NCBI GenBank assembly: GCA_964467225.1
Contig: CAYXPQ010000001.1
Location: 75,803 to 139,802, forward strand
DNA length: 64,000 bases
DNA from: an uncultured Candidatus Saccharibacteria bacterium
GTDB lineage: Bacteria > Patescibacteriota > Minisyncoccia > Phycocordibacterales > PALSA-1337
Direction: 5' to 3'
The notes below the pieces were generated by a model. The model worked only from the letters and a program-made list of their open reading frames with translations, made no database searches and had not been told where the DNA came from. Shown here piece after piece: positions 2,135-48,206 of the stretch. Position 1 is the stretch's first letter; each line of letters opens with the position of its first letter. Both the position numbers and the translations under genes were made by a program.

Positions 2135-5100
2135 ATGAAGAATATTATTAAAGTTTCTGTTTCAATATCTGTAATTTTTGTAGTTTTATTTGGTTTTAAT
2201 ATACAAATTTCAAATGCACAGACAAATTCTAATAAAGTTTTGAGTGGAGCTTGTATTTCTATAAACTCTTCTAAAACAATGAAAATTTCTTCCGGTAAAG
2301 TTTATATTAACGGAAAGGAATATGAATATACTGGGGGCGGCGGAAGTTTTCCAAGTAATAAATCATTTCCACTTTATGTAAAAACTCTTTATGGAAGTGT
2401 ATATAATCCATTGCCTGGAGAGGGTAAGGATGGTCCAGATAGTCTTAAGATTGGATATGTTACTACAGGTAAAGATAGTTTGATTACTGAAATAGTAAAT
2501 GTTTCACCATGGTGTGAGAATTATTCTTATGATATTGCAACAACAGCTACTACAAGTAAACCAGTAATAAAGGTTATTAGTCCAAATGGAGGAGAAGTTT
2601 TATATGTTGGCCAAAGTTATCCTGTAAAGTGGAGTGACAACAGTGGAGATGTAAGCAATGTATCTATTTCCCTAATAGATTACAATTCTGGAACGGAATT
2701 TAATCTATCTGGAGATGTCTCATCTAGGTCTTCAGGTGTAGATGGAACAAGCGTTTATTCACTACTAATACCGTCATATATAACAAAGAATATGACAACT
2801 ACAGGTGATGGTAACAATAAATTTAAAATTAGAATTTATTCTAAAAATGGAGCGGTAGATTCAAGTGATAACTATTTTACTGTAAGATCTACAACAACGC
2901 CATCTCTAAAAGTTATTAGTCCAAATGGTGGTGAGACACTATTAATGGAAGGATATTATCCTATAAAATGGTATGACACTAGGGATAGAAGCGATGTTAC
3001 TATATTTCTCGTTGATTACAAAAGCGGAACTGCAATACCTTTAGCTAGTAATGTATCTGTTACTGCATCAGGTATTGATGGTATAAGTACTTATACAGTC
3101 CAAATTCCAGGATATGTAGAAAGAAAGTTGGCAGTCGATACTAAGAGCTTTAAAATTAGAGTTGATTCAACTGGCGGGAGTGATTTAAGTGATGATTACA
3201 TTACTATAGCTTCTGCAACTTCTTCCAGCATAGACACCCCATGCTTTACTTTTAACAGAGACCTATCATACGGATCAGAGAACAAGGAAGTTGACTATCT
3301 AGTCAAAGCTCTACTTAAAGAAGGATCAATAAGAAATCCAAATAATCTAACTATTAAAAGTGAGAAATTTGATGAATCAGTATTAACTGGTGTAGTAGCA
3401 TTTCAAGGTAAATACGGAATACCACAAACAGGATATGTAGGACCTCTTACAAGAGCGATGTTAAATCGACTTTATGGTAATTGTAATCAGAGTGAGAATA
3501 TTTCTGCTACATTAAAGTTAATTAGCCCAAATGGTGAGTTATATAATGTTGGCTCAAGAGTTCCAATCTCATGGAATCACAATGGTAATCTAAAGAGTGT
3601 AACAATAGATATAATGACTGCTGATGGACAGAAAACATTACTTTCTCAATCATATAATGAAAATCCAGGAAGATATTCTTTCTTAGTAGCTACAGGAACA
3701 CCAGAAGGTAAGTATATGGTAAGAATAAGAACAACCAACTATTCTTCAAGTAATTATTTCTATGTGGGTAGCACAGGAAATTCTGCGACAAACTCAAAAT
3801 GTGATTTTGAGGTAAAATCACCAATAGCAAATTCTAAGGTTAACTTCCCACTGACAGTAACTGGTACTATAGATAGAAGTAAGTCAAATAATGCTGGATG
3901 TAGATGGCAAACATTTGAAGGGGTAGCTGGTACGGCCAAATTTTACGCTTATCTTACAGAAAAGAATCGTGATGGAACAATGAAAGGCTGGACATCAATA
4001 GGTGATTCAGTAATTATGAATCTAGAGAAAGTTAACTCAGATAAATCAAATTTTAATGTCAGATTTAATTTTCCGGAGGGAGGTTTCCAAATTAATAATC
4101 CAGTTAAGATTGTGTTTACAGAGGAAAATCCAGCAGCAATACGTCCAGCACTTACCTTTGAATTACCATTATACTTAGATACCTCAGGAAATTCTGCGAC
4201 AACAACTCCAAACATCTCCAAGGCTCAAATATCTGGTTCATGTGTTCTGAGTGCACCATCTGGTTATGCCATTACTTCAGGTAAATTAAAATTAAACGAT
4301 AAAGAATATTCATTTAGTGGTGGAAGAGGGTCATATTTGCCAAGTAATAGAGTAATGCCAGTATATCTATATATGCCAAGAGAGGGTTATGTGGCAAGTT
4401 ACGTATATTTGAATCCACCAGTAAATGTAGGGGTTGGAACAACTACAGCATTGAAGATTGCAACAATTGTTACAGGAGATAAAGGGGTTATAAGAAATAT
4501 TTATAATCTAAATCCTCTTTGTCAAAGTTATACAAATATCAAAGCTGAAGCAACATCAGTGCCTACAACTAATCAAACAATAAAGGTTATAAGTCCAAAT
4601 GGTGGGGAAGTGTGGCAGATAGGTAAGACATATGAATTTAGATGGAGTTCAAGTGGAATAGATAAGGTAATGATCAATCTTACAAATCAAGATAATAATT
4701 TTGGATATGGTACATTGAATGCTATTGATGCGAGAACAGGAAGGGTCACCTATACACTTCCAAATACTCTACCGGCAGGTAAATACAAAGTATTTATGGT
4801 GGATGCATCAGGTAAAACAATTACAAATGATTCAAGTGATAATTATTTCACAATAGTAAATTCAACATCAGGATATACACCAACTCCATCTACTACATAC
4901 ACTCCATATCCAAGCTATACACCTACATACTCACCAACTCCAAGTCAAACATATAATTCATACCCAACAGCAACCTACACCTCATCACCAACATACACAA
5001 CTAGCCCAACATATTCATCTACTCCAACATATACCTATACACCAAGTCCAACTTATTCATCATCACCTACAGCAACATATTCACCTAGTTATACATACAG

Positions 5101-36488: not shown

Positions 36489-36575
36489 GGAGAGATGGGT
36501 GAGTGGTTTAAACCAGCGGTTTACTAAACCGCCGTTCTTTAATTAGAACCGCGAGTTCGAATCTCGCTCTCTCCG
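36489..36575 (+). tRNA. type II tRNA-Ser-like gene with apparent anticodon ACU (unusual)
   Basis: Acceptor GGAGAGA/TCTCTCC, anticodon arm GCGGT-TTACTAA-ACCGC, long variable arm gttct-ttaat-agaac, T-arm GCGAG-TTCGAAT-CTCGC and discriminator G. Confidence 0.65.
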
Positions 36576-36577
36576 CA

Positions 36578-38735: not shown

Positions 38736-39875
38736 ATGAGTTTTATGAGTAGTATATTCTCAATTTTCTCAAGCAAGAGCCCCAGTGTTCTTGGTGTTGA
38801 TATTGGTTCCTCTGCGATAAAGGTAGTACAGATAAAGAAAAAAAGAGGAAGGGCAGTGCTCGAAACCTACGGAGAACTTGCTCTAGGCCCATATTCTGGT
38901 GTGGAAGTTGGTAGGGCCACGAATCTTCCTGTAGACAAAATTATTGATGCATTAAAGGATATTCTAAGAGAATCAAAGACAACTACAGTCTCAGCTGGAG
39001 TAGCTCTCCCGTTATCTTCAAGCCTCATTTCATTTATCAGTGTTCCCGCAGTTCCAGACAAGCAATTAGCTGATGTTATAAAACTTGAAGCTAGAAAGTA
39101 CATACCAGTGCCTATGAATGAAGTAATGATTGATTATTCTATTGTTCCTAAGGAAGATAATTATCCTCCTGAGGATGATAGTCAAAATCAAAATACAAAG
39201 CCAGATCCTGCTCAACCTTCAAAGTTAGTTAATAAAGATGTATTGGTTGTGGCAATTCACAATGAATACGTAAATAATTACCAATCAATTATGACTGGAA
39301 GCGGTATACAACCGACTTTCTATGAAATTGAGTTATTTAGTTCAATAAGAGCTGTGGTAGATCAGGGTATTAATGCTGTAATGATTGTAGATATGGGTGC
39401 AAGTATTACCAAGCTCTATATAGTCGAAAGAGGAATATTACGCACATCTCATATTATAAATAGAGGAGGTCAAGATATTACCTTAGCTATTTCAAAATCA
39501 CTAAGTGTTAGTGTCAGTGAAGCAGAAAACTTAAAGAGAGTAAATGGTCTCAAGGGTGGTCCAGAATACAAAGAATTGACTGAAATCATAACAGTTAATC
39601 TAGATTACGTATTCTATGAGGCAAATGCTACAATGCTGAATTATCAAAAGAAATACATGAAGAATGTAAGTAAAGTAATACTTACTGGTGGGGGAGTATT
39701 ATTAAAAGGTCTTACAGATCTTGCAAAGATCAGTTTCCAAACTGAAGTGATATATGCAGACCCATTTTCAAGATTAGAAACCCCTGCTTTCTTAGCAGAT
39801 CATTTCCTTCAAGCGGGTCCAGAATTTGCAGTAGCGATTGGTTGTGCTCTGAGAAGGCTTTCCGAGGTTGATTGA
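38736..39875 (+). CDS. pilM: type IV pilus assembly protein PilM (actin-like ATPase fold)
   Basis: 379 aa with N-terminus VLGVDIGSSAIKVVQI. It is first in the pilMNO order. Confidence 0.8.
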   Translation: MSFMSSIFSIFSSKSPSVLGVDIGSSAIKVVQIKKKRGRAVLETYGELALGPYSGVEVGRATNLPVDKIIDALKDILRESKTTTVSAGVALPLSSSLISFISVPAVPDKQLADVIKLEARKYIPVPMNEVMIDYSIVPKEDNYPPEDDSQNQNTKPDPAQPSKLVNKDVLVVAIHNEYVNNYQSIMTGSGIQPTFYEIELFSSIRAVVDQGINAVMIVDMGASITKLYIVERGILRTSHIINRGGQDITLAISKSLSVSVSEAENLKRVNGLKGGPEYKELTEIITVNLDYVFYEANATMLNYQKKYMKNVSKVILTGGGVLLKGLTDLAKISFQTEVIYADPFSRLETPAFLADHFLQAGPEFAVAIGCALRRLSEVD

Positions 39876-39933
39876 TAAGATATACACATAAGCTATCGAT
39901 TTAACTTTAATAATCTAGTATAATTTATACTGA

Positions 39934-40575
39934 ATGGAGACTAAATTTCAAACATCATTTATACCAAAGAAACCTTTAGTAACTGATCCTACTAAACCTA
40001 TAGTCGTTCACCGCGGAGGTGTAAGTATAATGATGATTGTATCAATAATTCTATTCATTGCATCAATAGGAGGTGCAGTATTTAGTGTTGTTTGGATTGG
40101 AGTTCTAAACCAAGCTCAAGAATCATATAAACAACAATTAGCGGATAGCGAAAAGAGATTTAATATATCCTTAATTGAAGATTTAAAGAAATTTAGTTCA
40201 AAAATTGAAATCAGTAAGGAATTATTCGAGAAACATTTAAGTGTTTCAGAGATTTTTCCAATTATTAATGAATTGACTATTGAAACAGTAAAATTTGATA
40301 GTTTTGTATTTTCTGAACCAGAGAAAGGTGGAGATAATATAAAGATTACAATGTACGGAGTAGCAAAAAACTATAATTCTATAGCATTTCAGTCAGATGT
40401 ATTCGGTTCTTCAGAGAAATTCGGCAAGAATAAAGTAATAAAGAATCCAGTGGTTGCAGATCTCTCAGAAGAAGAGAGTGGTGAGATCAACTTTACATTT
40501 AGTGGTTTATTAAGTACCAATGATGTGTTGTATGAGAAGACGGTAGATGCAAGTGTTAATATCAACAATCAATAA
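39934..40575 (+). CDS. pilN: type IV pilus assembly protein PilN-like (single TM)
   Basis: 213 aa bitopic protein following pilM. Confidence 0.65.
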   Translation: METKFQTSFIPKKPLVTDPTKPIVVHRGGVSIMMIVSIILFIASIGGAVFSVVWIGVLNQAQESYKQQLADSEKRFNISLIEDLKKFSSKIEISKELFEKHLSVSEIFPIINELTIETVKFDSFVFSEPEKGGDNIKITMYGVAKNYNSIAFQSDVFGSSEKFGKNKVIKNPVVADLSEEESGEINFTFSGLLSTNDVLYEKTVDASVNINNQ

Positions 40576-40580
40576 ATTAT

Positions 40581-41156
40581 ATGAATAAAGGAGTTGCACC
40601 AATTCTACTTTTAATACTAGCTGTCGGAGTATACTTTACTTTTACTAAGAGTAAGGTCGATGAAATTAAGTCTATAAAAACCGTAAATGCTGGATACGAA
40701 GAAGCTCTAGAGAATGTAGAGAAGCTTATTAAGGTCCGTGATGGAGTTCTAAAGACATATAATTCGATTGATGAGGTTGATAGAAGAAGATTAGATAAGA
40801 TTATCCCAAATAACATAGACAATGTAAGATTGATAATTGATATTAAGGGAATTGGTGAGCAGCATGGCTTAACGCTAAGAAATGTTAAAACAAGTGCAAA
40901 GAGTGCCGCTACAACAAATTCAGCTAATGGTGTAGGTATAGGTTCAGAAGTTTCTGCCTATGGTAGTGACTCATCAAAATATGAGACAGTGACTCTTTCA
41001 TTTGAAGTAGCAGCAAGTTATAAGAGTTTTGTTGAATTACTAAAATCAATAGAATCTAGTTTGAGAATATTAGATATTTCAAAAATAGATATTATAGCCA
41101 ATGATACAAATATCTATGATTATGAGGTTGAGTTAAAGACATATTGGTTAAAATAA
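40581..41156 (+). CDS. pilO: type IV pilus assembly protein PilO-like
   Basis: 191 aa with an N-terminal TM helix and a coiled-coil region. Confidence 0.6.
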   Translation: MNKGVAPILLLILAVGVYFTFTKSKVDEIKSIKTVNAGYEEALENVEKLIKVRDGVLKTYNSIDEVDRRRLDKIIPNNIDNVRLIIDIKGIGEQHGLTLRNVKTSAKSAATTNSANGVGIGSEVSAYGSDSSKYETVTLSFEVAASYKSFVELLKSIESSLRILDISKIDIIANDTNIYDYEVELKTYWLK

Positions 41157-41533: not shown

Positions 41534-43249
41534 ATGAGTGTAGTTGATATTCTATTAAAGAAAAATCTTATATCACAAGATGATATACGTGAGATTAAAA
41601 AGAGAACTGGAGAAGGAGAATCTCTAGATCAAATTTTGGTTGAAATAGGAGTCCATTCAGAAGATATATTGGCTGCCAGAGGTGAATTTCTGAATATTCC
41701 TATTAGAAATTTAGGTGAATCTAGTGTTCCATTTGAAGCTTTGGATTATATCCCAGAAGAATCAGCAACCCATTATAAATTTGTTCCAATTGGATTGAAA
41801 GAAGGGACTTTAGAAGTTGGTATTGTTGATCCTGATAATATAGAAGCTAGAGATGCATTAAATTTTATTGCATCAAAAAGTAATATTCCTTACAAAATAT
41901 TTTTGATAAGTGGTACAGATTATACAAAAGTAATAGAGTTATATAAGGGAATTGGTGGAGAGGTATCAAAGGCTCTTTCTGAACTTGAAACTGTTCTCTC
42001 TATTGATAACGAAGCTACAGTAGATGTAAAGAAAGGCAAGACAGAGAAAGACACAAATGCAATAATCATAGAAGATGCTCCTGTGGTCAAGATTGTAGCA
42101 ACTATTGTTAGATATGCTACAGAGGGTAATGCTTCTGATGTACATATTGAACATATGCGTGACAGAGTCAGGGTACGTTTCCGTGTCGATGGTACTCTAA
42201 ACACTAGTCTCGTTCTTCCATCTCAAGTTCATAGTGCTGTGGTCGCACGCATTAAGGTTCTTTCTAATATGAAATTAGACGAGAAAAGAAAACCGCAGGA
42301 CGGCAGATTCTCAGCAAGAATTGATGGTAGGAAAGTGGATTTTCGAGTCTCTACATTTCCAGCTTACTATGGGGAGAAGGTCGTGATGCGTATCCTAGAT
42401 CAAGAGAAGGGTGTAAAGAAGATTGAGGAGATGGGACTGTCTGAGAAAAACCTAGCACATTTCAAAGAGGCAATTAATAAACCATATGGACTAATTTTGA
42501 TCACTGGACCTACAGGTTCTGGAAAATCAACAACACTTTACTCTATGTTAAATGAAGTTGATAGAGAAGGAGCAAATGTGCTTTCTCTAGAAGATCCTAT
42601 TGAATATAATATGGATGGTGTAAGTCAGTCACAGGTCCATCCAGAGATTGGTTATACATTTGCTTCTGGATTGCGTACAACTCTTAGACAAGATCCAGAT
42701 ATAATAATGGTCGGTGAGATCCGAGATAAGGAGACTGCGCAGCTTGCTGTGCAAGCTGCGCTTACAGGTCACTTAGTGTTCTCAACCCTACACACTAACA
42801 ATGCCGCTGGAGTTATACCAAGACTTATAGATATGGGTGTAGATCCTTATCTTATTGCGCCAACACTTATTCTCGCAATCGCTCAGAGACTTGTCGGAAC
42901 TCTGCCTCAAGGTGGGGGTAAGCCTATTCCGGTTGAAGGTAGTATAAAAATGCTTATTGATAGACAATTCTCTGATCTTCCAGAGCAATATAAGAAGGAG
43001 ATTCCATTTACAGATACAGTATTCGGAATAAATCCAACCCCCGACTGTCCAAAAGGAACACGAGGACGTATGGCAGTGTTTGAAGTTATGAGAATGGATA
43101 AAGAAATTGAAGCAGCAATTCTAAAAAACCCAAATGAGTTAGAGATTTCAAGAATATTAAGACAAAAGGGAATGTTGACGATGAAAGAGGATGCAATGCT
43201 GAAAGCCTTTCAAAGGATAATTCCATTTGAGGAAGTTAATAAGCTCTAG
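41534..43249 (+). CDS. pilB: type IV pilus assembly ATPase PilB (GspE family)
   Basis: 571 aa with an N-terminal GSPII_E_N-like domain and Walker A GPTGSGKSTTLY. Asp and His boxes are present. Confidence 0.9.
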   Translation: MSVVDILLKKNLISQDDIREIKKRTGEGESLDQILVEIGVHSEDILAARGEFLNIPIRNLGESSVPFEALDYIPEESATHYKFVPIGLKEGTLEVGIVDPDNIEARDALNFIASKSNIPYKIFLISGTDYTKVIELYKGIGGEVSKALSELETVLSIDNEATVDVKKGKTEKDTNAIIIEDAPVVKIVATIVRYATEGNASDVHIEHMRDRVRVRFRVDGTLNTSLVLPSQVHSAVVARIKVLSNMKLDEKRKPQDGRFSARIDGRKVDFRVSTFPAYYGEKVVMRILDQEKGVKKIEEMGLSEKNLAHFKEAINKPYGLILITGPTGSGKSTTLYSMLNEVDREGANVLSLEDPIEYNMDGVSQSQVHPEIGYTFASGLRTTLRQDPDIIMVGEIRDKETAQLAVQAALTGHLVFSTLHTNNAAGVIPRLIDMGVDPYLIAPTLILAIAQRLVGTLPQGGGKPIPVEGSIKMLIDRQFSDLPEQYKKEIPFTDTVFGINPTPDCPKGTRGRMAVFEVMRMDKEIEAAILKNPNELEISRILRQKGMLTMKEDAMLKAFQRIIPFEEVNKL

Positions 43250-43261
43250 TATAATAAAGTC

Positions 43262-43657
43262 ATGAATAATGAAAATGTAAGCATACTTTTTATTGATGAT
43301 GATAAATTTCTACTTGATATGTATGCATTGAAATTTTCAAAGAATAATTTTGATGTTCATACTGCTCAGGGTCCTGAGGAGGGTCTGAAATTACTAAGAG
43401 ATGGATTGAGGCCAAATATAATTCTGACAGATGTGGTAATGCCTGCTATGGATGGAATAGAATTACTAGAGACAGCACAGAAGGAAGGCTTGGTTAAGAA
43501 TAGCGTTCTTATAATTCTTACGAATCAAGGTTTACCTGATGATATAGCTAGAGCTAAGAAGATTGGTGTAGATGGATATATTATTAAGGCAACCACCATT
43601 CCATCCGAAGTACTTATACAAGTTCAAAAGATTTATTTATCATCAAAAAGACAATAG
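43262..43657 (+). CDS. response regulator receiver domain protein (CheY-like, stand-alone)
   Basis: 131 aa with phospho-acceptor region ILFIDDD...DVVMPAMDG. It lies between pilB and pilT. Confidence 0.8.
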   Translation: MNNENVSILFIDDDKFLLDMYALKFSKNNFDVHTAQGPEEGLKLLRDGLRPNIILTDVVMPAMDGIELLETAQKEGLVKNSVLIILTNQGLPDDIARAKKIGVDGYIIKATTIPSEVLIQVQKIYLSSKRQ

Positions 43658-43658
43658 T

Positions 43659-44717
43659 ATGGAATATAAAAAAGAAATTGAGCAATTAGTCGACATGGTT
43701 ATAAAGGAGAATGCTTCAGATCTTCATTTGGCTGAAGGTAGGAATCCTATTATTCGTGTATCGGGCAATCTAATTCCTTTAGCTAAACTTCCCAAGCTTA
43801 GTTCTGCTGATATGAATGGTCTTATTTCTCAATTTTTAACTCCAGAGAACAAAGAGATATTTAAAAACGATAGGTCTGTGGATTTCTCTTATAGTATGAC
43901 CTCAGCACGTTTCCGAGGTAATGCTTTCTATCATCAAGGTGAAATATCAATTGCACTAAGACTTATTCCAAAACAGATTAGAACTTTAGCTGAGCTTAAT
44001 CTTCCACCCATTATTGAAACATTTACACGTAAACAGCAAGGGTTCTTTCTTGTTGTTGGACCAATTGGTCAAGGAAAGTCTACCACTCTTGCTTCTTTGA
44101 TTGAGATGATAAATCAAACTAGAACTGAGCATATTATGACCATTGAAGATCCTATTGAGTATATGTATGAGTCCAAAAAATCTATCATTGATCAAAGAGA
44201 GGTTAGGGTCGATACTCCAGGTTTCAAAGAAGGACTTGTTTCAATGTTCAGACAAGATATTGATGTGTGTTTAGTAGGGGAAATGCGCGATACAGACACT
44301 ATCGCTACTGCTGTAACTGCTGCAGAGACAGGTCATTTGGTATTCTCAACTCTACATACAAACAACGCAGCCCAGACCATTAACCGTATTATTGATTCAT
44401 TCCCATCAGGTCAACAAGATCAGATTAGGATTCAGCTTGCTGGAAGTCTTACAGGAATATTTTCTCAGAGATTAATTCCTAGAATTTCTGGAGGTTTGAT
44501 TCCTGCATTTGAGCTACTTATTAATAATAATGCAGTTGCGAATCTTATAAGAGAGAAGAGAATTCATGAAATTAATACTGTAATAGAAACAAGTTCTGGA
44601 GATGGAATGGTTGATATGAACAGATCTTTGGCAGAATTAGTACGCGCAAGAGAGATTACTGTAGAGAGTGCATATCTGAATTCACTTAATCCCAAAACTC
44701 TTGAACGTCTGGTATAA
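43659..44717 (+). CDS. pilT: twitching motility ATPase PilT
   Basis: Start set at MEYKKEIEQLVD (ATG 43659), just after the receiver stop. Walker A GPIGQGKSTTL. ~352 aa. Confidence 0.85.
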   Translation: MEYKKEIEQLVDMVIKENASDLHLAEGRNPIIRVSGNLIPLAKLPKLSSADMNGLISQFLTPENKEIFKNDRSVDFSYSMTSARFRGNAFYHQGEISIALRLIPKQIRTLAELNLPPIIETFTRKQQGFFLVVGPIGQGKSTTLASLIEMINQTRTEHIMTIEDPIEYMYESKKSIIDQREVRVDTPGFKEGLVSMFRQDIDVCLVGEMRDTDTIATAVTAAETGHLVFSTLHTNNAAQTINRIIDSFPSGQQDQIRIQLAGSLTGIFSQRLIPRISGGLIPAFELLINNNAVANLIREKRIHEINTVIETSSGDGMVDMNRSLAELVRAREITVESAYLNSLNPKTLERLV

Positions 44718-44729
44718 TTAAACAAAATT

Positions 44730-45938
44730 ATGCTTTTTATATATCAAGCAATAGATCAAACAGGTGCACCAAAGAATGGATCAATAGATGCAGTGAATGT
44801 TGATGTTGCCATTGCTTCTCTACAGAGAAGAGGGTTGGTAATAACGTCTATAAATGAAGAAGGTGCGAAGAAATTCAATATGTCCATGAATATTTCATGG
44901 TTAGAGAGAGTGTCTAATAAAGATATTGTTATTCTTTCTAGACAATTGGCTACACTTTTTGAAGCTCAAGTCTCTGCGCTTAGAATCTTCAGACTATTAG
45001 GAGGAGAAGCAGAGAATAAAGTCTTGAGATCAAAACTTAATATAATTGCTGATGATCTTCAAGCGGGTAGTTCTATTTCTATAGCATTGTCTAAGCATCC
45101 CAAAATTTTCTCAGAATTTTATGTAAGTATGGTTAAATCAGGTGAGGAATCAGGTAAATTAAATGAGACCTTTAGCTATTTGGCAGATTATCTCGATAGA
45201 ACTTATGAATTAGTATCCAAAGCTCGTGGTGCGCTTATCTATCCATCATTTGTTATTATGACCTTTATTACTGTGATGATACTAATGTTCACTATGGTTA
45301 TTCCAAAAATTAGTACCATTTTGGTTGAATCTGGTCAGGATATCCCAATATATACCAAGATCGTCTTGGGTATTAGTAATTTCTTTGTTGATTTTGGCTT
45401 TATATTGGCGGGTATAGTTATAATTGGAGGTTTCTTATTAATTAGATATATTCGAACTCCGACTGGTAAAGCAGCTTTTGATAGATTTAAGTTAAGTGTT
45501 CCTTATGTTAGTAACCTTTTCCGTAAGTTATATTGGTCAAGGCTTTCGGATAACATGAATACAATGCTTGTATCAGGCATTCCTATTGTTAGAGCACTAG
45601 AATTAACATCCTCAGTTATTAACAATTCCATCTATCAGAAGATTCTGGCAGATGCAGTTGATTCAGTTAAGGCTGGTAAAGCTGTATCTGAAGCTTTAAC
45701 TGTAAATGGTGAGATTCCTGGAATTATGATTCAAATGATGAAAGTGGGTGAGGAGTCTGGAGAGTTGGGTCCAATATTGAAGACTCTTGCTAGATTTTAC
45801 GCTAGAGAGGTCACTACAGCGGTGGACGCCTTGGTGGGATTGATTGAGCCACTTATGATTGTCTGTCTTGGAGGTGGTGTTGCCGTGCTACTAGCTTCTG
45901 TCCTAATACCTATTTACAATGTAGCCTCTGCACAATAG
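44730..45938 (+). CDS. pilC: type IV pilus inner-membrane platform protein PilC (GspF family)
   Basis: 402 aa with two GspF repeats. Confidence 0.85.
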   Translation: MLFIYQAIDQTGAPKNGSIDAVNVDVAIASLQRRGLVITSINEEGAKKFNMSMNISWLERVSNKDIVILSRQLATLFEAQVSALRIFRLLGGEAENKVLRSKLNIIADDLQAGSSISIALSKHPKIFSEFYVSMVKSGEESGKLNETFSYLADYLDRTYELVSKARGALIYPSFVIMTFITVMILMFTMVIPKISTILVESGQDIPIYTKIVLGISNFFVDFGFILAGIVIIGGFLLIRYIRTPTGKAAFDRFKLSVPYVSNLFRKLYWSRLSDNMNTMLVSGIPIVRALELTSSVINNSIYQKILADAVDSVKAGKAVSEALTVNGEIPGIMIQMMKVGEESGELGPILKTLARFYAREVTTAVDALVGLIEPLMIVCLGGGVAVLLASVLIPIYNVASAQ

Positions 45939-46023
45939 TTTTCCACAAACAATATCATTGTTATGTTTTATCTGTTATAATTATAGCCATCAAGTAATTA
46001 TTAATAAGTAATTTAATTAGTTT

Positions 46024-46488
46024 ATGAAGAAATATTCACAAGGCGGTTTCACATTGATCGAGTTGCTGGTTGTTATTGCGATCATTGGTATATTGTCATC
46101 AGTAGTATTAGCAAGTTTGAGTACAGCGAGAAATAAGGCTAAGGATTCAAAAGTTCAGAGTCAATTGGGCGCAATGAGAGCACAAGCTTTGTTATACACT
46201 GGAACAGGTACTGGGGTTGCGGCAGTATCACCATGTGCAGCTACAGCCAATACGTTATTTGATACTAACAATAACGGTCTAGGTAATTTAGTGGGTCCAA
46301 TTATTGCTCAAACAACAACAAGATGTTCATCTCAAGCAGGACAACCTTCAGCAGGAAATGTTAATTGGGCGGTAGCTGCTGATGTAACAGGAGGTACATG
46401 GTGTGTAGATAGTACAGGAGTATCAAGATTTTCTACAACAGCTCTTAACGCAGTTATTCAAAACGGAGGATACACTTGTCAGCCATAA
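46024..46488 (+). CDS. type IV pilin (candidate major pilin, paralogue A)
   Basis: N-terminus MKKYSQGGFTLIELLVVIAIIGILSS and a C-terminal Cys pair. A terminator hairpin follows at ~46517–46545. Confidence 0.85.
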   Translation: MKKYSQGGFTLIELLVVIAIIGILSSVVLASLSTARNKAKDSKVQSQLGAMRAQALLYTGTGTGVAAVSPCAATANTLFDTNNNGLGNLVGPIIAQTTTRCSSQAGQPSAGNVNWAVAADVTGGTWCVDSTGVSRFSTTALNAVIQNGGYTCQP

Positions 46489-46516
46489 TTTTTTTATAGA
46501 TAGAATACTTAATAAA

Positions 46517-46545
46517 GACCGCATGTTTATGCGGTTTTTTATGTG
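46517..46545 (+). terminator. rho-independent terminator after pilin A
   Basis: Stem accgcat-gttt-atgcggt followed by a T6 run. Confidence 0.7.
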
Positions 46546-46649
46546 TTGTGGATAACTAGTATTTCACATTATTAACACTTATAGCTATTTATTGCTATAA
46601 TTATCACCATAAGTTTATTATTAGTTTATTAAAAGTAATTAATTAGTTT

Positions 46650-47105
46650 ATGAAGAAATATTCACAAGGTGGTTTCACATTGATCGAGTTGCTGGTTGTT
46701 ATTGCGATCATTGGTATATTGTCATCAGTAGTATTAGCAAGTTTGAGTACAGCGAGAAATAAGGGTGCAGATGCAAAGATTCAATCTCAATTACAATCAA
46801 TGAGAGCACAAGCTGAATTATTTACTGGTACACATCTAGCTATCTCTAACACAGGTACTCCATGTGCTACAACTGGAATCTTTCAGACTGCAAATAATGG
46901 TCTAGGTAACTTATTAGGTGGTATTACAACTCAAACAAGATGTGCCTCAGACACATCTGGTAATTGGGCTCTTTCTGCCGTCACATCCACTGGAGCATGG
47001 TGTGTAGATAGTACAGGAGTATCAAGAGGTGCTACTTCAGGAGGGGTGGCTTATACTACTACTCTAACTACTTCGATTGCAGCTGCTGGTGTATCTTGTC
47101 TATAA
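46650..47105 (+). CDS. type IV pilin (paralogue B; 5' 132 nt including upstream region near-identical to paralogue A)
   Basis: The N-terminal 38 aa are identical to paralogue A. The two genes also share a conserved C-terminal block. Confidence 0.85.
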   Translation: MKKYSQGGFTLIELLVVIAIIGILSSVVLASLSTARNKGADAKIQSQLQSMRAQAELFTGTHLAISNTGTPCATTGIFQTANNGLGNLLGGITTQTRCASDTSGNWALSAVTSTGAWCVDSTGVSRGATSGGVAYTTTLTTSIAAAGVSCL

Positions 47106-47129
47106 TTTAATCAAATTACACCCTACATT

Positions 47130-47160
47130 ACCTCACCTTACGGTGGGGTTTTGTTTTTTA
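47130..47160 (+). terminator. rho-independent terminator after pilin B
   Basis: Stem cctcacc-ttac-ggtgggg followed by ttttgtttttt. Confidence 0.6.
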
Positions 47161-47216
47161 TAAACTGTGGAATTCTTTTGTATTTTTAATTTATATCTCT
47201 GATATACTTAAGGAAT

Positions 47217-47702
47217 ATGAAAAAACACTTAACAACAAAAGGTTTTACATTAATAGAATTATTAGTAGTTATCGCGATCATCGGTATATTGTCATCAGTA
47301 GTATTATCAGATTTAAGTACAGCCAGAAGTAAAGGAGGTGATGCGGCTATAAAGCAAGCATTAGCAGGAGCTAAGACTCAAGCTCAATTATTCAATACTA
47401 CAAATGGCACATTTACAGGAGTATGTGGATCCGGAGGTGAGACTATTGGAGATATGGTTTTGAATGCAGCTCAGAATCTAGGACAGACTGCTATTGTTGG
47501 TGGTACTGCAGATGCATTCGCATACAATCTTGACGGTTCTGTTACAGGAGCGGCGGTATGTCATGAGACAAATGATGGATGGGCAGCTATAGTGTCATTA
47601 AAAAATCCTATTGCTACCAGTTCTGGATGGTGCGTAGATTATTCTGGTAAGTCAGAAGAGAATACAACTCTAAGTTCTAACTCAGTAGATTGTGGTTTGT
47701 AA
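47217..47702 (+). CDS. type IV pilin-like protein (paralogue C)
   Basis: Prepilin N-terminus KGFTLIELLVVIAIIGIL. 161 aa. Confidence 0.8.
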   Translation: MKKHLTTKGFTLIELLVVIAIIGILSSVVLSDLSTARSKGGDAAIKQALAGAKTQAQLFNTTNGTFTGVCGSGGETIGDMVLNAAQNLGQTAIVGGTADAFAYNLDGSVTGAAVCHETNDGWAAIVSLKNPIATSSGWCVDYSGKSEENTTLSSNSVDCGL

Positions 47703-47708
47703 AATTAT

Positions 47709-48206
47709 ATGAAATTAAAATTTAACAACAAAGGATTCACTCTTATAGAGTTAATGGTGGTGGTTGTAATAATTGCAATTCTTACTTCTGTTGTTATGGC
47801 AAGTTTTGCTCAAGCCAAGGCTAAGAGTAGAGATGCAAAAAGAATTTCTGATTTGGCACAATTGCAGTTGGCACTTGAGTTGGGATTTGATAAGTGTAAT
47901 TCTTTTCCAGCAGTATCTACGGTTAATGGTGTTCATGTAGTCGTTCTGGGTTCTGTCTTTAGTACAACATGCATTCATCCCACTAGAGGAACTCCGTATG
48001 TTTTATCTGATTTTATTTCTAGAGTTCCTAATGATCCAAGTGGACCAACTGTCAACTATGTATATGAAGTTTATGCTACCAGATTTGATTATAGATTAAT
48101 GGCAACCCTTGAGACAATGAATGGTGCAACTGCAGGAGGTGTGACGGGAAATATTGGTCAGGCATTGTGTGCTACAGGAAATAATTATTGTGTGGCTCCA
48201 AGATAA
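47709..48206 (+). CDS. type IV pilin-like protein (paralogue D)
   Basis: Prepilin N-terminus NKGFTLIELMVVVVIIAIL. 165 aa. Confidence 0.75.
   Translation: MKLKFNNKGFTLIELMVVVVIIAILTSVVMASFAQAKAKSRDAKRISDLAQLQLALELGFDKCNSFPAVSTVNGVHVVVLGSVFSTTCIHPTRGTPYVLSDFISRVPNDPSGPTVNYVYEVYATRFDYRLMATLETMNGATAGGVTGNIGQALCATGNNYCVAPR

Follow-up and report, generated by a model that had tools for sequence, protein, structure and literature searches.

The window analysed here is a stretch of 64,000 nucleotides (nt) from an uncultured Candidatus Saccharibacteria bacterium (assembly GCA_964467225.1, contig CAYXPQ010000001.1, positions 75,803 to 139,802 of the forward strand). It encodes a complete type IV pilus cluster, of a Paceibacteria-like bacterium, in which two genes, referred to as pilin A and pilin B, head a tandem array of four pilin genes. 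In all likelihood these genes are subject to partial concerted evolution, in which recurrent intragenomic conversion keeps the 5′ untranslated region (UTR), the leader and the helix α1-N identical in ancient paralogs with distinct head domains. The locus is an instance of ordinary concerted evolution and is not a demonstrated antigenic-variation switch. The elements concerned are the following.

46006-46138, + strand: constant 5′ block, copy 1 (~18 nt at the end of the 5′ UTR, the leader of 8 residues and residues 1-30 of the mature protein, helix α1-N)
46024-46488, + strand: pilin A, type IV prepilin of 154 amino acids (MKKYSQGG, then FTLIELL...; N_methyl, PF07963, E=3e-9)
46397-46428, + strand: 32-nt shared block, copy 1, encoding (T)WCVDSTGVSR, a β-hairpin around Cys127
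46633-46764, + strand: constant 5′ block, copy 2, before and within pilin B
46650-47105, + strand: pilin B, type IV prepilin of 151 amino acids with a B-type head domain (N_methyl, PF07963, E=2e-9)
46996-47027, + strand: 32-nt shared block, copy 2, an exact repeat, around Cys118
47217-47702, + strand: pilin C, a paralog of A and B with the same N-terminal motif in different codons, which serves as internal control

The two genes share a gapless match that extends from -11 to +114 relative to the start codon (46013-46138 and 46639-46764, 126 nt) and contains a single mismatch, at 46044, which is synonymous (GGC vs GGT). One 1-nt indel (TTT vs TT) carries the identity on to about -18 (46006). 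This is close to the near-identity from -17 to +115, with one or two mismatches, that had been described in an initial annotation of the stretch. Between the 5′ block and the 32-nt block the codon-aligned nucleotide identity of A and B is 63%, and in the C-terminal tail it is 46%. The value of ~75% given earlier for the middle is too high, 73% being the identity over the whole blastn alignment with the identical blocks included.

The contrast between the block and the remainder of the gene is seen at synonymous sites. Among the codons with conserved amino acids in A and B, only 1/37 has a synonymous difference in the 5′ block (codons 1-38), as against 13/38 in the middle, 0/9 in the 32-nt block and 4/6 in the tail, and the difference between the 5′ block and the rest of the gene (17/44) is significant by Fisher's test (p=8.6e-5). 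The proportion of synonymous differences by the method of Nei and Gojobori (pS) is 0.04 in the 5′ block and 0.55 from codon 39 onwards (synonymous distance, dS, about 1.0), a value about equal to the divergence of orthologous pilB/T/C genes between related species. On these figures the synonymous divergence of the head domains is saturated. Pilin C, with nearly the same N-terminus as pilin A, has synonymous differences at 12/28 conserved codons. A further control consisted of 49 pairs of neighbouring pilin genes from related loci in which at least 26 of 32 N-terminal residues are conserved; the median fraction of synonymous differences is 0.38, and the window pair, with 0/31, lies at the extreme of the distribution. 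Many synonymous differences among codons for the same residues are found in pilin C and in 42 other adjacent pairs.

An exact stretch of 24 nt, GGTATATTGTCATCAGTAGTATTA (codons GILSSVVL), is common to A, B and C (46087-46110 and 47283-47306), and the codons just upstream of it have synonymous differences at 9/14 positions. It may be a patch of micro-conversion or a chance identity.

Both proteins start with MKKYSQGG followed by FTLIELLVVIAIIGIL and carry a class III signal peptide, in which a short basic leader of 8 residues ending in Gly precedes Phe at +1, Glu at +5 and a hydrophobic helix. They are 59% identical in amino acids over their whole length. Pilin A has four cysteines, of which Cys127 is the third and Cys152 the last, the equivalents in pilin B being Cys118 and Cys150. 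The content of Gly, Ala, Ser and Thr (GAST) is 44% in A, 50% in B and 44% in C, and 25-29% in PilB and PilC. GAST-rich composition has been used as a criterion for major pilins (PMC11623550). Judged by composition and by the layout of promoters and terminators, A and B are probably major pilins. The AlphaFold2 model of pilin A (mean predicted local distance difference test score 87.5) has a helix (11-55) packed on an antiparallel β-sheet in a 'lollipop' topology, with β-strands at 65-68, 99-103, 115-121, 124-129 and 134-137. A Foldseek search of the model against the PDB gave no significant match, the best being the Thermus and PAK pilins (E=0.2-1.7). Since these matches are weak, the assignment of the pilin fold is based on Pfam, the topology of the model and the genomic context.

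Comparison with related pilus loci

Syntenic loci in other assemblies were reached through homologs of pilin A; a contig search with the window's own pilin A found no encoding contig on record. All the comparative data are consensus metagenome assemblies. The nearest loci in the species-representative genome collection are from Patescibacteria metagenome-assembled genomes (MAGs) labelled Paceibacteria, Taylorbacteria, Nomurabacteria and Kaiserbacteria. A scan of metagenomes with a degenerate pattern of the 5′ block recovered only two short contigs, both of which end inside the block. The gene orders are given below, and the window genome is referred to as W, its pilins as W_A and W_B.

L001, L002 and L008 (one population): pilC-A1-IS1595-A2-B-C-D
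L003: A-B-C-D
L004: A-B-C-D
L005, L006 and L007: B-A′-C-D
L088 and L089 (one metagenome, from the degenerate 5′-block scan): pilC-A... and ...X-C-D

Outside the 5′ block the genes are related by type. Orthologs of the B-type have been identified in L001, L003, L004 and L006. In the head region the nucleotide identity is 67-83% among A-type genes and 84% and 73% for pairs of B-type genes, as against 54-64% between A and B, and neighbour-joining (NJ) trees of the head core recover the type clades, A or B, with bootstrap values of 99-100. For the flanking genes pilB, pilT and pilC, pS between these genomes is 0.55-0.74, from which it follows that the duplication is old and that the homogenisation is younger than speciation. 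On the evidence of these sequences A and B are ancient paralogs, whose A-type and B-type heads are older than the split of the related species.

Within the 5′ block the genes are related by genome. The paralogs differ at 1 site in the window, 1-2 in L001, 1 in L004 and 6 in L003, and 2-14 sites differ between genomes. Of 20 variable sites in the block, 12 follow the genome pattern and none the type pattern, whereas 6 variable sites of the core follow the genome and 11 the type. In NJ trees of the block the genome clades have bootstrap values of 90 for L001, 100 for L004 and 27 for the window pair. The A-type pilin of L089 and the novel X-type pilin of L088 have identical 5′ blocks that carry a private TTG-to-CTA change. 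A GENECONV-like permutation test on the 5′ run gave p about 0.001 for W_A and W_B, and p<=0.008 for all three pairs of L001. The same mosaic has been identified in an independent tandem pair (3001-3447 and 3568-4041) of L015, a distant Paceibacteria MAG; it has 0/31 synonymous differences in the 5′ block, ~125 near-identical nt starting inside the leader and 46% amino-acid identity in the remainder of the proteins. Gene conversion, which the initial annotation had proposed, is the best explanation of the 5′ block, as paralogs share genome-specific synonymous variants and heads sort by orthology.

The 3′ boundary of the tract lies at codon 39 in all the genomes, where the A-type KAKDS... and B-type KGADAK... 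sequences begin. From general pilin structure this codon would correspond to mature residue 31, in the part of the helix that passes from the buried α1-N to packing against the head. The 5′ boundary is variable. In the window, L003 and L089 the tract takes in ~18 nt at the end of the 5′ UTR, and the first-slot gene of L001 and L004 retains a different UTR (...AAATTTTCTT).

According to the proposed mechanism, non-reciprocal homologous recombination between the tandem copies would repeatedly homogenise their 5′ ends from about -18 to +114, over a tract that runs from the translation-initiation region through the leader peptide to the buried polymerisation helix α1-N. The tract would end at codon 39, where the similarity of A and B falls sharply, and the outcome would be a mosaic gene pair in which the module for processing and assembly is identical and the heads exposed at the surface differ. 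Observed are the sequence patterns, the discordance of the trees and the contrast at synonymous sites; we infer that the recombination is of the RecA type and that both genes are expressed. The benefit could be that both pilins remain compatible with one machinery, or that homology is provided for gain, loss and exchange of cassettes.

Several observations weigh against this reading. The window genome has no private shared variant, W_A being 2 nt from the A-type gene of L003 and the W clade being recovered with a bootstrap of only 27%; the case for conversion in the window lineage is therefore made by the paralog distance of 1, which is smaller than every ortholog distance (2-10), and by the 14-fold contrast in pS. 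The pS of the 5′ block between genomes, 0.08-0.48, is below the range of the flanking genes, so that an additional constraint at the nucleotide level or exchange between lineages must contribute. The 6 differing sites of the L003 paralogs indicate that homogenisation is not uniform. No conversion event is seen directly in the consensus assemblies, and recA was not seen within the 64-kb window, in which RecG and LigA are present.

The GC content at third codon positions (GC3) of the 5′ block is also distinct, 0.37-0.39 as against 0.15-0.18 in the remainder of A and B. The background is 0.23 (8,488 codons), which places the block among the highest 2.3% of windows of 38 codons; for the same segment of pilin C, here and in relatives, the values are 0.08-0.21. 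The block is rich in the rare G/C-ending codons CTG, ATC, GCG and GAG, which argue against codon optimisation as the cause of the identity. Over the 49 adjacent pairs, the GC3 excess is larger where the synonymous divergence of the 5′ block is lower (Spearman rho -0.55, p=4.7e-5), the homogenised pairs being phylogenetically non-independent. This pattern fits GC-biased gene conversion, of which it is only suggestive.

The 32-mer CATGGTGTGTAGATAGTACAGGAGTATCAAGA occurs exactly twice in the 64 kb, where none would be expected by chance even with 3 mismatches. The exact repeat reported in the initial annotation is thus confirmed, although it surrounds the third of four cysteines and not the C-terminal one. 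In the model of pilin A the translated block covers the last part of strand 124-129, then a turn, then strand 134-137. Each of 90 aligned homologs has C127 and D129, and at least 90% of them have V128, S130 and G132. The same 30 nt are found in both paralogs of L003, and the paralogs differ at 3-4 positions in L001 and at 5 in L004. A clear conversion tract was considered for this block and downgraded, in view of the modest significance (0/9 vs the rest, p=0.044) and the absence of the pattern in L001 and L004. Primarily, the block represents a highly conserved structural motif, the WCVDSTGVSR β-hairpin with the third Cys. Its nucleotide identity is weak evidence of conversion and may represent a short patch or retained ancestral codons; as far as these genomes indicate, it is not a consistent second anchor.

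Turnover of the array and rival explanations

The make-up of the array differs between relatives. The L001 population carries three cassettes with the same 5′ block, and a gene for an IS1595-family transposase with two small open reading frames (ORFs) lies between A1 and A2 (L001 5570-7069, also in L002 and L008). L005 (1-170) is identical to L006 (337-506) and to L007 from -25 of the A′ ATG through pilin C. What precedes A′ in L005 is the end of an A-type gene whose 3′ UTR is that of A′; in L006 and L007 a B-type gene ends there. This switch is either a strain-level rearrangement of the array at the constant block or a repeat-induced misjoin. Contigs that end in or near the constant 5′ block include the end of L002 (7804), the end of L088 (1993) and the starts of L089 and L005; the last ~21 nt of L006, a Logan contig, are an apparent Illumina adapter (AGATCGGAAGAGCGTCGTGTA), an artefact of the contig end. 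Pilin C of the window (47217-47702) and of L004 (6227-6712) are 94% identical in nucleotides with pS of 0.18, the value for pilB/T/C being about 0.56, which suggests recent recombination or transfer between lineages. The varying array content, the switch between L005 and L006 and the similarity of pilin C fit recombination at the constant block together with inter-lineage exchange, of which they are only suggestive.

It could be supposed that no recombination is involved and that purifying selection on nucleotides, through translation initiation, codon choice, an mRNA element or membrane targeting, acts equally on both genes. The conservation of the 5′ block between genomes agrees with this, as do the lack of a private variant in the window pair and the conservation of unusual rare codons across genomes. 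Constraint alone, however, cannot yield the genome-specific synonymous variants common to all paralogs in L001, L004 and L088/L089, and it is opposed by the adjacent pairs, pilin C among them, that keep the residues and not the codons. Since no signal of RNA structure was obtained in the 5′ UTR and 5′ block (z=+0.36 and +0.58), the explanation by an RNA element was dropped. Selection acting by itself is very improbable. An assembly artefact, or a very recent tandem duplication of the whole gene with fast divergence of the heads, is scarcely credible. The source is a metagenome-assembled contig, the ~130-nt repeats are near k-mer or read length and the contigs of relatives break there, but the same architecture has been assembled independently in at least 5 data sets of different projects, and one substitution and one indel between the copies show that the assembly kept them apart. 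The very recent duplication is excluded by the pS of the core and by the type-specific orthologs in other genomes, in line with the argument of the initial annotation that a divergent middle opposes a recent simple duplication.

The idea that constant ends with a variable core are a signature of antigenic variation was also part of the initial annotation. A programmed system of pilin variation, in which the 5′ block and the 32-nt Cys block would be anchors for exchange, duplication and deletion of head cassettes at appreciable frequency, would give antigenic, host-range or phage-receptor variation analogous to that of Neisseria pilE/pilS. The array indeed varies from A-B (window, L003, L004) to A1-IS1595-A2-B (L001), B-A′ (L006/L007) and the X head of L088, L005 and L006 are unrelated upstream of a 100% identical segment, relatives' contigs repeatedly end inside the 5′ block, and pilin C points to exchange between lineages. 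Yet both A and B are full genes with promoter, start codon, leader and terminator. No silent or partial pilin copies were found elsewhere in the 64 kb (blastn and tblastn, window only), no G-quadruplex motif (G3+N1-7 x4) on either strand of the whole window and no CCGG sites in 45900-47250. As to conserved cys1/cys2 and 3′ SmaCla-type repeats common to all copies, the picture is mixed: the block around the third Cys is identical in the window and differs between paralogs of L001 and L004, and the 3′ flanks and terminators of A and B differ. Invertase-driven switching of pilins is known from Moraxella tfpQ/tfpI with Piv; A and B are direct repeats on the + strand without significant flanking inverted repeats, and no recombinase domain was present among the cluster genes scanned. 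The heads are type-stable across species, the A and B cores of the window have saturated synonymous divergence with no recent exchange, the 32-nt block differs between paralogs in two relatives, and the average dN/dS of the head domain between orthologs, 0.11-0.24, gives no gene-wide signal of positive selection. The comparison of related loci that the initial annotation had proposed gave a divided result, for cassette number and order vary and contigs break or switch at the block, whereas L001, L002 and L008 are 99.98-100% identical across the array; differences at array junctions could moreover be repeat-induced misassemblies. A programmed system is accordingly unlikely, and the logic of the earlier argument is to be reversed, since conversion homogenises the constant end and is not shown to create or shuffle the variable core. 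Somewhat less doubtful, and still tentative, is a portable homology anchor, formed by the 5′ module and perhaps the WCVDSTGVSR block, by means of which head cassettes would be duplicated, deleted, reordered and imported from other strains, the anchor being kept and enriched in GC by biased conversion. Partial concerted evolution of the 5′ ends is preferred in what follows.

Relation to known systems and significance

In mechanism, the locus comes closest to the class of interlocus gene conversion between tandem paralogs in bacteria. Known examples of such conversion or of partial concerted evolution are tufA/tufB in enterobacteria and babA/babB of Helicobacter pylori, the latter with conserved ends and a divergent middle. 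As in this class, paralogs at the present locus are closer within a genome than orthologs over a bounded tract only, with orthology outside it. Unlike these examples, the tract is short (~130 nt), lies over the 5′ UTR, leader and α1-N of a pilin and is enriched in GC3 in a genome of 35% GC. Partial concerted evolution of tandem paralogs is well known and no new mechanism is revealed; what is new is the instance of a known mechanism in an understudied phylum.

The closest functional analogue appears to be the array of multiple major pilins of Streptococcus sanguinis, in which 2-3 adjacent full-length major-pilin genes with conserved N-termini (pilE1/pilE2; pilA1-A3) are located in the pil cluster (PMC11121087). 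The pilA paralogs of this species are closer within a strain than between strains, and their copy number varies with the strain (PMC11121087). In both, full-length pilin genes that share leader and α1-N stand next to one another in a pil cluster. Some paralogs of S. sanguinis are >90% identical over the whole protein and duplication is invoked, whereas the heads described here are ~50% identical and anciently diverged, the 5′ block alone being homogenised. Co-assembly into one filament has been shown in S. sanguinis; A and B are known from their genes.

In Neisseria one expressed pilE is accompanied by about 19 promoterless silent copies without the constant N-terminal region, and the system also has a G-quadruplex/gar element, with an sRNA promoter, upstream of the expressed pilin, SmaCla repeats and CCGG-dependent cleavage by restriction-modification systems at tract borders (PMC13321361). 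The pilins of N. gonorrhoeae and N. meningitidis resemble the present ones in the constant N-terminal part, the variable head, the conserved segment at a Cys and conversion between copies. In Neisseria conversion diversifies the variable region, whereas here the constant region would be homogenised and both copies are complete and apparently expressed.

Other tandem pilin pairs are pilAI/pilAII of Pseudomonas stutzeri and pilA1/pilA2 of Synechocystis. To our knowledge no 5′ block kept identical in nucleotides by conversion has been reported for these pairs or for that of Legionella. All of them share with A and B the arrangement of adjacent paralogous pilin genes of which one or both are major pilins. 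The Legionella pair, PilA1/PilA2, is also in tandem (PMC13170364).

Type IV pilus clusters with GAST-rich pilins in bacteria of the candidate phyla radiation (CPR) are represented both by this locus and by the Saccharibacteria strain TM7x, whose major pilins, small, rich in GAST and highly expressed, are used in binding to the host and in motility (PMC11623550). The pilA1 and pilA2 genes of TM7x belong to two separate systems at different loci, and no tandem mosaic pair has been described in this strain. In the present locus the major-pilin genes of a CPR bacterium occur as a small tandem array, with a uniform assembly module, several old and distinct heads and a content that changes between close relatives. 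Type IV pili are the best-supported host-contact organelles of episymbiotic CPR bacteria (Patescibacteria). The locus is a testable handle on how uncultivated cells of this kind may vary their surface specificity, and a small natural system in which GC-biased conversion could be tested in a bacterial genome rich in AT. Its identical repeat of ~130 nt breaks metagenome assemblies at the pilin array or can misjoin them. Should the 5′ module act as a portable anchor, the array would serve as a source of diversity at the level of the population, for attachment to hosts or evasion of phages, with import of cassettes, for example, after pilus-mediated uptake of DNA.

Regulatory signals and gene neighbourhood

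The signals found around the two genes are listed below.

45973-45981, + strand: extended -10 TGTTATAAT of pilin A, read from the sequence
46514-46545 (hairpin 46514-46539), + strand: terminator-like hairpin and T run after pilin A, intrinsic
46547-46601, + strand: promoter region of pilin B, with TGTGGATAAC at 46547-46556, -35 TTAACA at 46572-46577 and extended -10 TGCTATAAT at 46593-46601
47130-47159 (hairpin 47130-47149), + strand: terminator-like hairpin and T run after pilin B, intrinsic

A TGnTAnnnT element is located 40-50 nt upstream of the first-slot pilin in 5/5 related genomes examined. The promoter scan upstream of pilin B gave 11/12 with TG before the -10 (TTAACA-18-TGCTATAAT), and this region is kept in the equivalent intergenic regions of L001, L003, L004 and L005. 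The terminator of B-type genes accompanies these genes in the relatives. A sharing of promoters, suggested in the initial annotation, is not borne out, as the identity of A and B ends ~18 nt before the ATG, and A and B are each preceded by a conserved extended -10 element of their own; the terminator that it had assigned to each gene was found 3′ of both. Pilins A and B are each apparently transcribed separately.

The TGTGGATAAC motif is directly upstream of the second-slot -35 and has equivalents in L001, L003, L004, L005 and L006. The sequence TGTGGATAA is the reverse complement of the DnaA-box consensus, and a related CTGTGGAATTC precedes the promoter of pilin C. The 9-mer of the motif has 2 occurrences in the window, which is not significant alone. 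It could be a candidate regulator site.

The other genes of the cluster, with Pfam assignments taken for the pilus machinery from syntenic orthologs, are as follows; the GC content of the window is 34.7%.

38.7-41.5 kb (PilM-PilO 38736-41156): PilM, PilN-like ORF, PilO and an ORF of 121 amino acids, upstream
41534-43249, + strand: PilB ATPase (T2SSE in syntenic orthologs)
43262-43657, + strand: receiver-only response regulator (Response_reg in syntenic orthologs)
43659 (probable start) to 44717, + strand: PilT, pilus machinery by Pfam of syntenic orthologs
44730-45938, + strand: PilC (T2SSF in syntenic orthologs)
47709-48206, + strand: pilin D, a paralog of A and B with the same N-terminal motif in different codons
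48210-49007, + strand: prepilin peptidase PilD (Peptidase_A24, A24_N_bact)
49.0-51.3 kb, to 51266, + strand: four minor-pilin-like genes (N_methyl)

The longest ORF of pilT (43572-44717, 381 amino acids) overlaps the response-regulator gene by 86 nt; the orthologs are called at 352 amino acids, which makes 43659 the probable start.

An orphan fifth pilin-like gene (32063-32698, - strand, 211 amino acids, N_methyl) is located 14 kb upstream of the cluster and resembles A and B in the N-terminal helix only (76% nucleotide identity over 68 nt). It is adjoined by the gene of the RecG helicase (32707-34884, - strand).

This part of the window also carries tRNA genes. A serine tRNA with an A at position 34 is unusual among bacteria, and ARAGORN assigned a tRNA-Ser with anticodon ACT at 36489-36576, the loop of which reads TTACTAA on inspection; a normal tRNA-Ser(GCT) is present at 34917. 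A tRNA-Ile with anticodon TAT was assigned by the same program at 31877-31951. The tmRNA gene (28421-28827, - strand) has a predicted tag peptide, AKVKSIVSPYFGSRDFTFALATA, that is longer than usual.

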